Shown in pieces: positions 1,793 to 9,861 of a stretch of DNA of 9,861 nt. Made by a program: the position numbers and the translations under genes. The stretch lies in IMG/VR virus record IMGVR_UViG_2529292920_000001, positions 1 through 9,861 of that record; one strand, given 5' to 3'. Position 1 is the first letter of the stretch, and each line of letters begins with the position of its first letter. The stretch comes from a virus. Taxonomy: Duplodnaviria > Heunggongvirae > Uroviricota > Caudoviricetes. The notes beneath the pieces were generated by a model. That model had not been told where the DNA came from, ran no database searches, and saw only the letters and a list, made by a program, of their open reading frames with translations.

Positions 1793-2089
1793 TCATTGCA
1801 TTATTGCAACAGATTGATTAATAATTCCAATTAATGTGTTTATTTTTTCATTTATCTTAATGTGTTTTTTCTCTTGTTCAAGAGAAAGCTTCCTGAATTC
1901 ATTTTTCCTGCTCGGCACAGCAACTATCAATTCTTCATAAATCTCCTTTGCTCCTGATACTTTCGCCAACTCACTGCTGTGTTTTTCAATAAGAGAATTT
2001 ATTTGGATGTTTATATTCCTGTGTTCATGACTGGTAGCACTTGAAACAAGTTGACAGGAAGGCTTTGGGGTTGCCTCAATTAATTCCAC
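1793..2089 (-). CDS. Hypothetical protein, 98 aa, predicted helical
   Basis: ORF in the AT-rich stretch, 21 nt downstream of the 80 aa ORF on the same strand. Start is GTG (2087-2089) with no clear Shine-Dalgarno; no recognisable motif. Confidence 0.3.
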   Translation of the reverse strand: MELIEATPKPSCQLVSSATSHEHRNINIQINSLIEKHSSELAKVSGAKEIYEELIVAVPSRKNEFRKLSLEQEKKHIKINEKINTLIGIINQSVAIMQ

Positions 2090-2110
2090 GCATGTTATTG
2101 CGACATTGAA

Positions 2111-2353
2111 TTAAGATGTGGTTGAGTATAAATATTGATACACTCCTGTTTTTCTTACTTTGTTTAATAGTCCTTTTTTAACCAGGTATTGAATTTGATT
2201 ATAAGTAAAAGCTTTTGCCTTTAAATAAGTTTTCGGAAGTGAAAATCGCTCGATAAGAATTTTTGCTACATCGTTACTGGTGAAGTTATCTTTGCCAATG
2301 TAGATGATTGCAGAAAATATGTACGACTCAGAGTTGGTTACTCGACTATTCAT
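2111..2353 (-). CDS. Hypothetical small protein, 80 aa, possibly winged-helix DNA-binding
   Basis: ATG at 2351-2353 (minus strand), divergent from the HTH gene. A candidate -35 TTGTCT / -10 TATACT pair (18-nt spacer) lies on the minus strand upstream, overlapping the palindromic operators. Sequence pattern (VAKILIERFSLPKTYL...YLVKKGLL) loosely suggests a wHTH fold; not verified. Confidence 0.4.
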   Translation of the reverse strand: MNSRVTNSESYIFSAIIYIGKDNFTSNDVAKILIERFSLPKTYLKAKAFTYNQIQYLVKKGLLNKVRKTGVYQYLYSTTS

Positions 2354-2375: not shown

Positions 2376-2424
2376 CTTAGGATTGCTAAGTATACAACAA
2401 TGACAGATACTTAGACAATCTAAG
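2376..2424. promoter_or_regulatory. Two copies of a 15-bp palindromic operator-like site (CTTAG-N5-CTAAG) in a divergent promoter region
   Basis: CTTAGgattgCTAAG at 2376-2390 and CTTAGacaatCTAAG at 2410-2424, centres 34 bp apart. A larger inverted repeat CTAAGTAT (2386-2393) / ATACTTAG (2407-2414) links them. They sit between the divergent starts at 2353 (-) and 2451 (+). Confidence 0.5.
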
Positions 2425-2450
2425 CATCCGAGGCCAATGAAGATGAATCA

Positions 2451-2783
2451 GTGTCTGAAAAAAATCCGATACCAGAACGACTTAAGGAAGCGAGATGCAG
2501 GGCGGGTTTATCACAGCGCTCTCTGGGTCTCCTTGTTGGCTTTGATCCCGCATCGGCTAGCAGTCGTATGAATCATTATGAGAAAGGACGCCATGTCCCC
2601 GATATTGATACACTTCGAAGGATGGCGGCAGAGTTAAACGTGCCGTTGAACTACTTTTTTTGTGATGATCAGACAACAGCAGAACTTGCATTACTCATAT
2701 CCCGGATGACAGAGGAAGAGCGAAGTAGCCTTATCGAAGCACTCAAAACGTGTTCAGGTGTAAAACATGCTGACAAAAAATGA
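2451..2783 (+). CDS. XRE-family helix-turn-helix transcriptional regulator, 110 aa
   Basis: N-terminal Cro/C1-type HTH pattern (LKEARCRAGLSQRSLGLLVG ... MNHYEKGRHVPDIDTLRRMAAELNVPLNYFF). GTG start at 2451, so the exact start is uncertain. Stop TGA at 2781-2783 overlaps the next gene. Confidence 0.7.
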   Translation: MSEKNPIPERLKEARCRAGLSQRSLGLLVGFDPASASSRMNHYEKGRHVPDIDTLRRMAAELNVPLNYFFCDDQTTAELALLISRMTEEERSSLIEALKTCSGVKHADKK

Positions 2784-2961
2784 TGTTATACAAAAGGCTA
2801 TTGATCTTTTTGAAGGTAACGAAAGTGCAGCATTAAACTGGTGCAATGAACCAAACAGAGCATTACAGTGGAAAACGCCCTCTGAGATAATGGACTCAGA
2901 AGAGGGGGCGTTGAAAGTTGCCATGCTCATTTTTCGAATAGAGCAAGGCGTTTATTCATGA
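2767..2961 (+). CDS. Small DUF2384-like protein (Xre/MbcA/ParS antitoxin toxin-binding domain-like), 64 aa
   Basis: Own ribosome-binding site AGGTG (2756-2760) 6 nt before ATG at 2767. Pattern ALNWCNEPNRALQWKTPSEIMDSEEGALKVAMLIFRIEQG resembles the DUF2384 toxin-binding domain (recalled, not searched). It overlaps the HTH gene by 17 nt in the +1 frame. Confidence 0.5.
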   Translation: MLTKNDVIQKAIDLFEGNESAALNWCNEPNRALQWKTPSEIMDSEEGALKVAMLIFRIEQGVYS

Positions 2962-3077: not shown

Positions 3078-3512
3078 TTATGACGACTTGTGTAACTCCC
3101 GAATTACATGTTTGGCCAACAGACTTTCCACCGGAATAACCGTATTGATTTTTACCGCTTTGACAATTTCTATCAACGACAGGGTATTCTGCGCCAGTTG
3201 GTCTCGCAGCTCACTGACTTCCGCCTGCAACTGCTGGTTTCTGGCCAGCAAGGCCTGACGGGTTTTGCGGTTGACGTATTGCTGTTTTTCTTTTGGGCGT
3301 AGATTCAATGGGCCAAGTTGCTGATCAACATAGGCAGCAATTAGGCGTTTTCGCTCAAGGCTGCTCAGCGTACTTAAACCACCGTTAACGATACCTTTTG
3401 CCTTGAGCCGAATATGCAGGGCCTTGGCGGAAATAGGGGACTTGTCAAAGCCTTCAACCAGCATCAGTTGTAATTCGTGCTCGATCAGTGTGTCCAGTTC
3501 CTTGCCGCGCAT
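3078..3512 (-). CDS. Small coiled-coil accessory protein of the recombinase operon (TnpC-like by position), 144 aa
   Basis: ATG (3510-3512) overlaps the stop of the upstream 424 aa gene in an ATGA arrangement. C-terminal half predicted coiled coil (ARNQQLQAEVSELRDQLAQ). No catalytic motif recognised. Confidence 0.5.
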   Translation of the reverse strand: MRGKELDTLIEHELQLMLVEGFDKSPISAKALHIRLKAKGIVNGGLSTLSSLERKRLIAAYVDQQLGPLNLRPKEKQQYVNRKTRQALLARNQQLQAEVSELRDQLAQNTLSLIEIVKAVKINTVIPVESLLAKHVIRELHKSS

Positions 3513-4786
3513 CAGTCGTTCTCCTGCATCAATTGTTGGTATTCAAGTGCAAAAAGCTGGGCCAGTGTACGGACTTTGCCCTCGGTGATTACTCCACCAG
3601 ACAACACACTCTCCGCAGCAACCAGTTGTTGAGTCTTGGCACGACGCTGCCATTGTGCTTGTATTGCCTCGAGTTGCTGTAACCGTCGTTCGATGTCGGC
3701 CAGTCTGGTCTGGTAGTCAGGCTGATGTTGTGTAAGTTGGGTCAACTTCGAATGTGCTTGCTGTAACGCCTGTTTTTTGGCAATCAGATTGGGTAGCTCA
3801 TCTATCCGGCCTGTCAGCGTGAAATGTTCACAAAAGGCAGCACTCTGGCATTTCAGTCGATAAGGACATCCCCAGAGGTTAACTTCCCGCATACAGGAGC
3901 CAAATTTCAGCGGATACATCACGGCATGTCTTGCCACCATGGCAGAGGCTTGCTCTGGTCCTTCTGCGTCGCGGATTTCTTCAAAGGCGGCAGCAACATC
4001 TTCAAAGAGGCCGTCAGCAAATGACGCCTCGACAAACCTAGCTACATCATCCCGATCGTCAAAAGTATGCAGGTTGGCTTTGATGGTATTGTCCAAAGTC
4101 ATGTGTTCCGTGACCGCCAGTTGGCCGGTCCGTTTGACGATTTCCAGTGGCGTAGCAACGGAGGACGAAGAGGGCGCGGCAGTTAGTGCTGTCGATATCG
4201 GCTGCAAGGGCACCAACGAGGCTGCTTTTCGCCGTTCTGCAAGCGCCAGATGCTGATAGTGCTGATTCTGCGTGATGTCCACTCTCCCCATCAGCATTGC
4301 CTGTAAGTGGTCAGCGATATCCGCAATGGCAAGAAAGGTATTGATGTTGTGCCGGGGAATGTGGGTACGCATCCGGGTGGGGGTACCATTCTCTTCCAGT
4401 AATTGATATTTGCTGAATACTGATCCATCAGGCTCAACATTGCCTAAAAATTTATTCATAAGTGTGTTAGTGAAGGGTATCGGTATAGCCAGCAAAGCCA
4501 GTGTGCGCTTTAATGCCAGCGAACCCTTCTCATGTAGAAATAACAGGTCTTCGTAGTTAACTTCGTAGCGTTTGCCATTTTCCATCCAGGCGTGCGTACA
4601 GGGTTCGTTGGCATTCGTCAGGCCAAATTCGGTCTTGATGTAATGATTAAGGTCAGTCTTGGAATAGAGGATTTTTAGGCCGAAAATGATGTAGTAGAAA
4701 TATCGAGGATCAATTTCCTGAGTTTCAAGGTAATTTTGAAATACTTTCAACAAATGCAGGTGTATAAATGGTACTATTCGACTCAT
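3512..4786 (-). CDS. Atypical tyrosine recombinase-like protein with C-terminal Cys-cluster/coiled-coil extension, 424 aa
   Basis: Residues ~142-180 read HIPRHNINTFLAIADIADHLQAMLMGRVDITQNQHYQHL, which aligns with tyrosine-recombinase box II (HxxRH ... LLGH ... Y), with Arg in place of the usual His and a candidate catalytic Tyr at ~177. A ~245 aa C-terminal extension follows, with C-x7-C-x5-C-x5-C-x-H and a Gln/Leu-rich coiled coil. Start is 9 nt after the upstream recombinase stop, without a Shine-Dalgarno. Confidence 0.6.
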   Translation of the reverse strand: MSRIVPFIHLHLLKVFQNYLETQEIDPRYFYYIIFGLKILYSKTDLNHYIKTEFGLTNANEPCTHAWMENGKRYEVNYEDLLFLHEKGSLALKRTLALLAIPIPFTNTLMNKFLGNVEPDGSVFSKYQLLEENGTPTRMRTHIPRHNINTFLAIADIADHLQAMLMGRVDITQNQHYQHLALAERRKAASLVPLQPISTALTAAPSSSSVATPLEIVKRTGQLAVTEHMTLDNTIKANLHTFDDRDDVARFVEASFADGLFEDVAAAFEEIRDAEGPEQASAMVARHAVMYPLKFGSCMREVNLWGCPYRLKCQSAAFCEHFTLTGRIDELPNLIAKKQALQQAHSKLTQLTQHQPDYQTRLADIERRLQQLEAIQAQWQRRAKTQQLVAAESVLSGGVITEGKVRTLAQLFALEYQQLMQEND

Positions 4787-6252: not shown

Positions 6253-6506
6253 GCAAGAAGAAGATAGAGGGATAGGTAAGTGTATGATTGATCGTAGTCT
6301 GTGGCTGGTTATGAACTAAATGAACGGCGGACTAAATTTAACATAATATACATTATGCGCACTGTTATCAGGACTGATGAAAACCGAAGGCCAGTCATCA
6401 CCAGAATTGCTGTAACCCATCAATTTCATCAACTGGCCACATCAATGCATGGACGACTCACGCCTTGCGTCGTTCGTCTCGATAGCTGCCCTTTAAAAGC
6501 GGCCTG

Positions 6507-6534
6507 GCAGGAAGCGCGTTGCGCTGTCTCCTGC
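6507..6534. other. Imperfect GC-rich hairpin in the recombinase/phage junction
   Basis: GCAGGA-AGCGC-gtt-GCGCT-(gtc)-TCCTGC: outer 6-bp and inner 5-bp stems with a 3-nt bulge. Shares the core CGCGTTGCG with the palindrome at 6607-6623. Confidence 0.35.
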
Positions 6535-6606
6535 TGCTCTGTAATTTCTCCCTGGCTTCGGCGGTCAGGCAGCTGCATCACATGAAACATCATCATGCCG
6601 CCTTAC

Positions 6607-6622
6607 ATGCCGCGTTGCGGCA

Positions 6623-6623
<1 letters not shown>
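6607..6623. other. Palindrome ATGCCGC-gtt-GCGGCAT abutting the pIV gene stop
   Basis: 7-bp arms with a 3-nt spacer, ending at the first base of the pIV stop codon (6623-6625). No T-tract follows on the minus strand, so it is not a canonical intrinsic terminator. Confidence 0.3.
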
Positions 6624-8937
<2,314 letters not shown>

Positions 8938-8951
8938 AAATCACCCTCTTA

Positions 8952-9235
<284 letters not shown>

Positions 9236-9252
9236 AATTCACCACCTGATTA

Positions 9253-9861
<609 letters not shown>

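Follow-up and report, generated by a model that had tools for sequence, protein, structure and literature searches.

Twin palindromic sites upstream of a controller-type XRE gene, probable operators of an overlapping-promoter switch in a decayed defence island

Genes around the intergenic region

The whole stretch of DNA analysed here, 9,861 nucleotides long and hereafter called the window, contains at positions 2376–2424 a conserved 49-bp intergenic region flanked by two divergently oriented genes. To its right lies xre (2451–2783, plus strand), which starts with GTG and encodes a controller-type helix-turn-helix (HTH) protein of 110 aa; the same ORF is annotated by RefSeq in an Escherichia coli chromosome that is 99.8% identical to the window (L001). 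The product matched the Pfam family HTH_3 (E 7.5e-9) and, over 92 of 101 positions, the PADLOC model Control_protein (E 5.5e-26). Directly behind xre, and overlapping its end by 17 nt in another frame, is a 64-aa ORF (2767–2961, plus strand) that consists of the Xre/MbcA/ParS C-terminal toxin-binding domain (DUF2384) alone, as found with Pfam PF09722 (E 2.6e-11), its NCBIfam matches being below the cut-off. This small ORF is probably co-transcribed with xre, and the gene that follows it is convergent and unrelated.

The succession of an XRE HTH and an Xre_MbcA_ParS_C domain is likewise seen in the antitoxins of the Xre-RES, ParST and MbcAT systems. Unlike in those antitoxins, the two domains are found here in separate, overlapping ORFs, neither a RES nor a ParT gene follows, the HTH part is a relative of controller proteins, and the NCBIfam antitoxin models remained below their cut-offs. 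A frameshifted Xre-DUF2384 antitoxin was considered and rejected, since stand-alone proteins of about 103–110 aa are the rule in the XRE family and the DUF2384 ORF was found only in the enterobacterial branch.

To the left of the intergenic region, gene U (1793–2353, minus strand) is a frame of 186 codons for a winged-helix protein with a PadR-like fold; in the window, a stop at codon 81 (2111–2113) makes it a pseudogene. The sequence-only reading of this DNA had listed here a gene of 80 aa; translation demonstrated, however, that this ORF (2111–2353) is the front part of the U frame and that, together with the 98-aa ORF behind it (1793–2089), it makes up one interrupted reading frame. In L001, too, RefSeq gives U as a pseudogene with an internal stop, and intact homologues of 186 aa are common.

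Relatives of the locus were collected with a profile built on the XRE protein, each species being represented by a single genome in the scan; this yielded 80 loci with 57–97% protein identity, which span four gammaproteobacterial orders (Enterobacterales, Vibrionales, Alteromonadales and Oceanospirillales). Where a divergent ORF of at least 150 aa is present, it belongs to the U family (about 175–195 aa) in 61 of 63 loci. No match to U was found in Pfam, NCBIfam or PADLOC, and a profile search yielded only 51 representatives among 1.84 billion proteins. The AlphaFold model of U (pLDDT 80.6) consists of an N-terminal winged helix and a C-terminal helical hairpin, and the best PDB matches obtained with Foldseek were PadR, VanR and MarR regulators. 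Furthermore, a gene for an SF2 helicase of about 460 aa (ResIII/DEAD/Helicase_C) directly follows U on the same strand in 39 of the 69 loci whose flanks are long enough; the enterobacterial island branch, the window included, lacks it. Two further weak helicase matches were recognised as type I HsdR genes.

The surroundings of the locus are those of a mobile island. In L001 the cargo on the left comprises the retron Ec78 RT-PtuA-PtuB genes and an ABC three-component system, PtuA and PtuB corresponding to positions 102–1573 of the window, and the core genes on the right encode a 144-aa protein, a 788-aa protein and two tyrosine integrases. This core has the four-gene layout of GInt or strand-biased circularizing elements (SE); in E. 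coli, such elements are known to carry defence systems (PMC10121019, PMC10214605). The window has suffered a 2.7-kb deletion inside the recombinase module and contains filamentous-prophage genes from about position 6362 onwards; the locus lies in a decayed defence island of the GInt/SE type. Among 5426 complete E. coli genomes, 271 contain the 1.4-kb module of the island, as do 98 plasmids, the majority of them from Klebsiella; it was not found in the phage collection. The 49-mer of the intergenic region is present in only two IMG/VR contigs, one of which (L083) carries the same island module. Phage origin and membership of the RstR group were both rejected, given the lack of a match in the phage collection and a score of 38.2 bits, against a cut-off of 80, with the phage RstR model NF041951.

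Letters and conservation of the twin sites

The conserved region (2376–2424, no strand assigned) is composed, from left to right, of a first operator-like site, the hexamer TATACA, 10 variable nucleotides, the triplet AAA or ATA and a second site. Both sites were read directly from the letters and have no strand of their own: O1, distal to xre, occupies 2376–2390 (CTTAG-GATTG-CTAAG, CTTAGGATTGCTAAG), and O2, proximal to xre, occupies 2410–2424 (CTTAG-ACAAT-CTAAG, CTTAGACAATCTAAG). Their centres, at 2383 and 2417, are 34 bp apart and the gap between them is 19 bp. Two elements with the same half-sites, different spacers and this centre-to-centre distance had been noticed in the sequence-only reading, which also placed them just upstream of the XRE-HTH gene, and both observations were confirmed, O2 ending at 2424 and xre starting at 2451. 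Its description of the elements as perfect palindromes of 15 bp holds for the 5-bp arms (6 bp with the flanking A...T) and fails for the spacers GATTG and ACAAT, which are not palindromic.

The two sites had also been described as bridged by an inverted repeat of 8 bp. In the window CTAAGTAT (2386–2393) is indeed the reverse complement of ATACTTAG (2407–2414); the complete repeat is, however, restricted to the enterobacterial branch, and most relatives, in which the right arm reads AAACTTAG, keep only CTAAGT/ACTTAG. As judged from the aligned regions, this conserved part represents the outermost base of either 17-bp operator and not a separate element. In enterobacteria, where alone the bridge is complete, the two extra bases improve the -10-like hexamer GATACT. 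The region as a whole was described by a repeat finder as a pair of 18-nt arms with 78% complementarity.

When one mismatch was allowed, O1 and O2 were the sole two matches to CTTAG-N5-CTAAG in the 9861 bp, with 0.18 expected. Two matches were reached in 5 of 200 shuffles, a figure that counts matches with up to one mismatch and not exact copies 34 bp apart. Chance as the origin of the twin sites was ruled out by their conservation among relatives, and it is on this comparison that the reality of the sites decisively rests. A third copy with up to one mismatch was found neither in the window nor in 25 kb of L001. With up to two mismatches, L001 yielded five further weak matches, seven in total against 12.4 expected by chance, and hence no signal of a regulon; the idea that the same half-site might recur elsewhere in the element, raised in the sequence-only reading, accordingly led to no further copy beyond chance in the window and the 25 kb of L001.

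That reading had also pointed to absence of the palindromes from conserved homologous loci as one observation that would speak against their being operators. Both sites were found in 76 of the 80 loci, and the start-to-start distance was 34 bp in all 76. Two of the exceptions end at a contig edge (L059, L063) and two have one site lost or degraded (L061, L072); a fifth locus outside the clean cases of this count (L009) has only the right half of O2, near the contig start. An exact CTTAG-N5-CTAAG precedes the homologous gene in each of 74 non-identical upstream regions, and the upstream sequence, AAA-CTTAG-GATTG-CTAAG-TATACA-(10 variable)-AAA-CTTAG-ACAAT-CTAAG, is nearly invariant among the loci.

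Among 71 non-identical sequences, the 49-bp core carries a mean of 1.66 bits per position, compared with 0.21 in the left flank and 0.41 in the right flank, and 37 of its 49 positions, those of both operator spacers included, are conserved to at least 90%, even though the neighbouring protein shares only 57–66% identity. In the same set of relatives the half-sites are invariant, the spacer of O1 is at least 89% and that of O2 at least 93% conserved. A few half-site variants do exist, namely CATAG in L012 and L020 and TTAAG in L013, all of them one-sided. Given the much greater divergence of the coding sequences on either side of the core, selection acts on the DNA itself.

Inverted repeats could in principle also be kept for the sake of RNA, as hairpins that terminate or attenuate transcripts in the intergenic region. 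A terminator-like hairpin was flagged by a scan on the minus strand at 2430–2404, and both strands fold better than shuffled sequences (z -2.5 and -4.2), although the inverted repeats alone are enough to give such scores. Against a hairpin stand the would-be loops, that is the spacers, which are as conserved as the stems, the one-sided and uncompensated nature of the variants in L012, L020 and L013, a poor U-run and the lack of any match in Rfam. Moreover, the flanking genes diverge from the region, so that no transcript needs to end there, and a role in RNA is considered highly improbable.

Even less credence is given to a recombination or transposition site, that is an element end or attachment site used by the neighbouring recombinases. 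The region does adjoin a recombinase module of the GInt/SE type, and sites of this kind are often inverted repeats. The identical 49-mer was, however, found beside machineries that are unrelated to each other (TnsABC transposases, TniQ-Cascade and tyrosine recombinases). It invariably separates xre from U, and it lies within the element, where cargo and core genes flank it on opposite sides.

Base reading by the XRE protein and layout of the promoters

The closest solved relative of the XRE protein is the controller protein C.Csp231I (PDB 3LFP), which was retrieved by phmmer against the PDB with E 2.4e-22 over residues 9–93 and shares 48% identity over 82 aa (BLASTP). On the basis of its sequence, the 110-aa protein is assigned to the C.Csp231I/C.EcoO109I ('motif 8') class of controllers. 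C.Csp231I binds as one dimer per CTAAG-N5-CTTAG site, as seen in its crystal structures, to two sites that are 33 bp apart and separated by a gap of 18 bp (PMC3115060, PMC4321490), the left operator (OL) activating and the right one (OR) repressing (PMC4824078, PMC4321490). Its binding has been described as non-cooperative, with a critical length of the inter-operator DNA (PMC4824078, PMC4321490), and its base contacts are made by Ser32, Gln37 and His43 (PMC4321490, PMC3115060). In the alignment, these residues correspond to S37, H42 and H48 of the XRE protein, so that two are kept and the glutamine is replaced by histidine. His42 is invariant across 20 members of the family to which the protein from the window belongs, and the half-site found here is the C.Csp231I pentamer with its central base swapped.

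The correspondence between this residue and the operator was followed in 143 upstream regions, 69 of them non-identical regions of Gln-type proteins (from 80 metagenomic loci) and 74 non-identical regions of His-type proteins, the family present in the window. Exact CTAAG-N5-CTTAG occurred in 55/69 Gln-type and 1/74 His-type regions and exact CTTAG-N5-CTAAG in 0/69 and 74/74, respectively, counts that reflect one evolutionary switch between two clades instead of many independent ones and that come from sets collected by means of Q- or H-containing peptide patterns. The spacing of the operators in the Gln-type set was 33 or 34 bp. In the window itself, the C.Csp231I-type motif CTAAG-N5-CTTAG was absent even when one mismatch was allowed. 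Such a match between contact residue and operator type is expected if the XRE protein reads the arms.

With high confidence, then, the palindromes may be regarded as Xre operators, the binding partner presumably being this very protein. The assignment draws on what was observed directly (presence, conservation and invariant spacing of the sites, the family of the protein, and the co-variation of operator type with contact residue) as well as on the homology to C.Csp231I and on the EMSA and lacZ experiments published for the Xre proteins of I-F3b transposons.

The palindromes might instead be read, mainly or additionally, by the winged-helix protein U, which would give a bistable switch with two repressors of the lambda CI/Cro type. 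U is predicted to possess a winged HTH together with a PadR-like dimerisation hairpin, it is the conserved divergent partner of xre in the 61 of 63 loci mentioned above, and a pair of competing regulators would go well with the mirror symmetry of the region. Such a role of U is nevertheless judged to be unlikely. The half-site type follows the contact residue of Xre, and homologous Xre proteins on their own bind motifs of this kind in vitro. The sites have stayed perfect in the window and in near-identical strains despite the decay of U to a pseudogene, and the arms are kept in the two loci from which U is absent (L033, L038). In addition, PadR and MarR proteins generally recognise operators of greater length and another form.

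In L033 and L038, where another gene takes the place of U, both operator spacers are altered, while the arms and TATACA are retained. These changed spacers suggest that the spacers serve the leftward promoter. The putative leftward promoter P(-) (2389–2418, minus strand) has the -35 hexamer TTGTCT at 2418–2413 and the -10 hexamer TATACT at 2394–2389, separated by 18 nt; it scored 9/12 in a consensus scan and both hexamers fall in invariant columns. Its -35 lies inside O2 and its -10 abuts O1, so that the predicted start would be inside O1, near 2380–2384. The overlap of the palindromes with the -10 and -35 elements of the minus-strand gene, claimed in the sequence-only reading, is therefore borne out by the predicted positions, the gene served being the U frame and not one of 80 aa.

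For xre, two placements of a putative rightward promoter P(+) were obtained within 2383–2419 (plus strand), both with weak hexamers that lie in conserved columns and both scoring 8/12, under the threshold of the scan. Model A combines the -35 TTGCTA (2383–2388) with the -10 GATACT (2406–2411) and Model B the -35 TATACA (2391–2396) with the -10 GACAAT (2414–2419), each over a spacer of 17 nt and with predicted starts near 2418 and 2426, respectively, and the two fit about equally well. In Model B the centre of O1 would lie near -43 and O2 over the -10, a geometry in agreement with the published roles of the two sites, activation from the distal and repression from the proximal one. A further candidate from the consensus scan, TTGACT-18-AACAAT on the plus strand, was rejected as a general xre promoter because TTGACT is present in this lineage only.

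Two back-to-back promoters, a good leftward and a weak rightward one, would thus overlap within the 49 bp at the positions given. The conservation of the operator spacers, despite their not being palindromic, is accounted for by the predicted promoter hexamers that they carry. The whole region is nearly mirror-symmetric. Furthermore, the spacers mirror each other, GATTG in O1 facing ATTGT (the complement of ACAAT in O2), which fits a bidirectional promoter and not a unidirectional one.

Taken as distal and proximal operators of the 110-aa XRE protein, O1 and O2 very probably form part of a controller switch with overlapping promoters; for the detailed promoter logic, with its activation and repression, confidence is moderate. 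One Xre dimer would occupy each site of 15–17 bp, the recognition helix reading the pentamer arms. In a cell without Xre, for instance when the element has newly entered a host, the leftward promoter would fire and xre would be made at a low level. Xre bound at O1 would then cover the -10 and start of the leftward promoter and, by analogy with its relatives, may also stimulate xre, and binding at O2 would cover the leftward -35 together with the -10 and start of xre, by which xre would be capped. With both operators occupied, the leftward promoter would be shut. The expected outcome is early and transient expression of the leftward gene or genes and a steady level of the repressor.

The sequence-only reading had taken the sites for operators of a dimeric HTH autorepressor, bound cooperatively in a divergent promoter. 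Homology, spacing and co-variation argue for the operators and their setting; the relatives, however, are activator-repressors and not pure autorepressors, and cooperativity is conjectural, as binding by the relative C.Csp231I was reported to be non-cooperative. Activation may also work differently here, or not at all, as the SQE patch by which C.Csp231I contacts region 4 of sigma-70 for activation is replaced by SQR (S21-Q22-R23; [ST]Q[RK] across the family alignment). With the leftward gene dead and the recombinase module partly deleted, the live outputs in the window are only xre and the DUF2384 ORF, and the switch has probably survived as a well-preserved relic, its own repressor being all that it still regulates.

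Relation to known controllers and spread among mobile elements

An element of this type is already known from the C-boxes of the C.Csp231I class and from the Xre sites of I-F3b transposons. C.Csp231I, from the restriction-modification (R-M) system of Citrobacter sp. RFL231 (PDB 3LFP, 4JCX, 4JCY, 4JQD), is likewise an XRE protein of about 100 aa, which has two operators upstream of its own gene with 5-bp inverted arms, a 5-bp spacer and a flanking A...T, the gap between them being long in both cases (18 bp in C.Csp231I, 19 bp in the window), and it shares two of the three base-contact residues, the third being Gln37 there and histidine here. It differs in its half-sites (CTAAG...CTTAG there, CTTAG...CTAAG here) and in its spacers, which are tandem A-tracts in C.Csp231I and mirror-image, ATTG-containing sequences carrying -35 hexamers in the window. 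Unlike the Citrobacter gene, xre has no linked restriction endonuclease or methylase in the window, its neighbours being the U pseudogene, the DUF2384 ORF, the GInt/SE recombinases and PtuAB of retron Ec78. C.EcoO109I, another 'motif 8' controller of an R-M system, is described as sharing its contact residues with C.Csp231I and as having a pair of palindromic operators with a long gap, which at 25 bp is longer than here.

The I-F3b CRISPR-associated transposons (CASTs) encode an Xre of about 100 aa related to C.Csp231I (Petassi, Hsieh and Peters 2020, doi 10.1101/2020.07.02.184150). Its motifs are found twice upstream of xre and once upstream of tniQ-cas, the purified proteins bind them in EMSA, and lacZ assays showed repression through the proximal site and activation through the distal one (doi 10.1101/2020.07.02.184150). 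This protein (RtbC), which is autoregulated, belongs to the same family as the XRE protein of the window and has the same two motifs upstream of its gene. Among the 80 loci, L049 and L066 are such xre-tniQ-cas8/5 loci (by Pfam), with an Xre 59–62% identical, the identical 49-bp region and, in addition, a third site that precedes tniQ by about 40 nt. The window, in contrast, has no flanking tnsABC or tniQ-cas8/5,7,6 genes and no third motif, and its host element is not a transposon but an island of the GInt/SE type with tyrosine recombinases and retron Ec78. The divergent gene and the helicase are not mentioned in the CAST paper (doi 10.1101/2020.07.02.184150), and a literature search with the name 'RtbC' returned unrelated papers only.

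Immunity regions of the lambda type and the RstR/ig-2 region of CTX-phi work alike without belonging to the same group: a small HTH repressor is divergent from early genes, several operators lie in overlapping back-to-back promoters, and induction follows entry into a cell free of repressor. Unlike in those phages, there is no second small Cro-like HTH protein, the partner being the 186-aa winged-helix protein, and no phage record matches the region.

New, in comparison with these systems, are the GInt/SE host context, the bidirectional layout with a conserved winged-helix partner and often a helicase, and the correspondence of Gln or His in the protein with A or T in the operator. No Xre or HTH regulator is mentioned in the GInt/SE literature covered, and a switch of the controller (C-protein) type would be located at the boundary of core and cargo in GInt/SE-type defence islands of E. 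coli and relatives. The biology of this particular window is modest, its leftward gene being a pseudogene and its recombinase module partly deleted.

The cassette has varied neighbours among the relatives. At least 17 loci have tnsABC in convergent orientation to xre, and tniQ/tnsD and tnsE, tniQ-cas8, and GInt/SE recombinases were also found beside it. An invariant operator pair is common to at least three kinds of integrating element. It is possible, although this is put forward only tentatively, that the 49-bp region, xre and the divergent winged-helix gene, often with the helicase, constitute a self-contained and portable 'entry switch' cassette captured by unrelated integration machineries, which appear to be Tn7-like transposons (with TnsD/TnsE or TniQ-Cascade targeting) and GInt/SE tyrosine-recombinase islands. 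Because the operator code is frozen across the four orders, cross-repression would occur between resident elements and incoming ones of another class, and if this holds, regulatory immunity would be common to unrelated mobile elements. The early pair of winged-helix protein and helicase, which is unmentioned in the transposon and island literature covered, would under the same assumption represent an uncharacterised establishment or anti-defence function. Finally, the Gln/His versus A/T correspondence amounts to a simple specificity rule, which could help in building orthogonal switches.

Start codon of xre and variants of its operators

Comparison of the xre 5′ region in the window and the related loci L002–L081 demonstrated that the gene for this 110-residue HTH protein begins with a codon other than ATG in 67 of 68 non-identical lineages (GTG in 45, TTG in 22). 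An ATG is found 8, 11 or 14 nt 5′ of the start in 64 of these lineages, and in 62 of the 64 every such upstream ATG lies in the −1 frame. The reading frame thus opened comprises 23–44 codons and overlaps xre; in the window, where ATG codons at 2437 and 2443 precede the GTG at 2451 (all on the plus strand), it spans 2437–2571 (+) and encodes 44 residues. It could act as an upstream ORF damping translation of the repressor. Alternatively, the upstream ATG could be left over from the leaderless-AUG arrangement of genes encoding restriction-modification controller proteins.

The DNA between the operators O1 and O2 varies among the relatives. In about one third of them (L016–L021, L027 and others), inter-operator DNA and the O2 left arm together form the sequence ATAAG-TAAAA-CTTAG, which occupies positions 25–39 of the 49-mer carrying both operators, overlaps O2 and is one mismatch from a Csp231I-type site, CTAAG-N5-CTTAG. 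In locus L021 the site overlapping O2 is exact (CTAAG-AGAAA-CTTAG); no Csp231I-type site overlaps O2 in the window. The locus from Pseudoalteromonas prydzensis (L035) carries two full operator pairs in tandem, at −167/−133 and −74/−40 from xre, the whole array spanning −167 to −26 relative to that gene.

Genes adjoining xre

The divergent winged-helix gene (1793–2353, minus strand) is interrupted by a stop codon at 2111–2113, where the window copy reads STTS*F whereas the relatives have SATSEF; it is a pseudogene in the window and likewise in nearly identical E. coli strains. Immediately downstream of the winged-helix gene, 39 of 69 loci carry an SF2 helicase of about 455–465 aa with ResIII/DEAD/Helicase_C domains, for example at about −631 to −2001 relative to xre in L016, at 4027–5415 in L082 and at 3835–5079 in L085. 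Its top PADLOC similarity, a partial one, is to PbeA, and a helicase beside the winged-helix gene is not mentioned in the CAST or SE literature examined.

On the other side, xre shares 17 nt with a 64-aa ORF (2767–2961, plus strand) that consists solely of the domain with which Xre/MbcA/ParS antitoxins bind their toxins. It is an orphan, with no RES/ParT toxin gene downstream. The ORF is restricted to the enterobacterial branch, and its tblastn matches in several relatives (L003, L004, L006 and L007) fall into two pieces, which may represent frameshifts.

Damaged island and filamentous prophage

Relative to the 99.8% identical E. coli chromosome L001, about 2.7 kb (14967–17649 of L001) is missing at window positions 4666–4737, and the 424-aa ORF at 3512–4786 is therefore what is left of the 788-aa core protein at its C-terminal end. 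The same comparison shows the 516-aa integrase gene to be mostly gone; the island is probably immobile in the window. The exact 49-mer also occurs in two IMG/VR contigs filed as viral, L083 (IMGVR_UViG_2565956711_000001) and L084. Since the former has the same island module as the window, with ORFs of 186, 110, 145 and 788 aa, it appears to be an island and not a virus.

Past the first integrase gene of the island, the window continues with filamentous-prophage genes (6362–9861), including those for a secretin (6623–7882), a Zot-like protein (7879–8937) and a DUF2523 protein, which differ from the neighbours found at this position in L001. This part also contains an 18-nt tandem repeat, TACCCGTACCGCTGCCTG (9624–9825; 11.2 copies, 96% matches), probably encoding a repetitive stretch within a phage protein of the coat or adsorption type.
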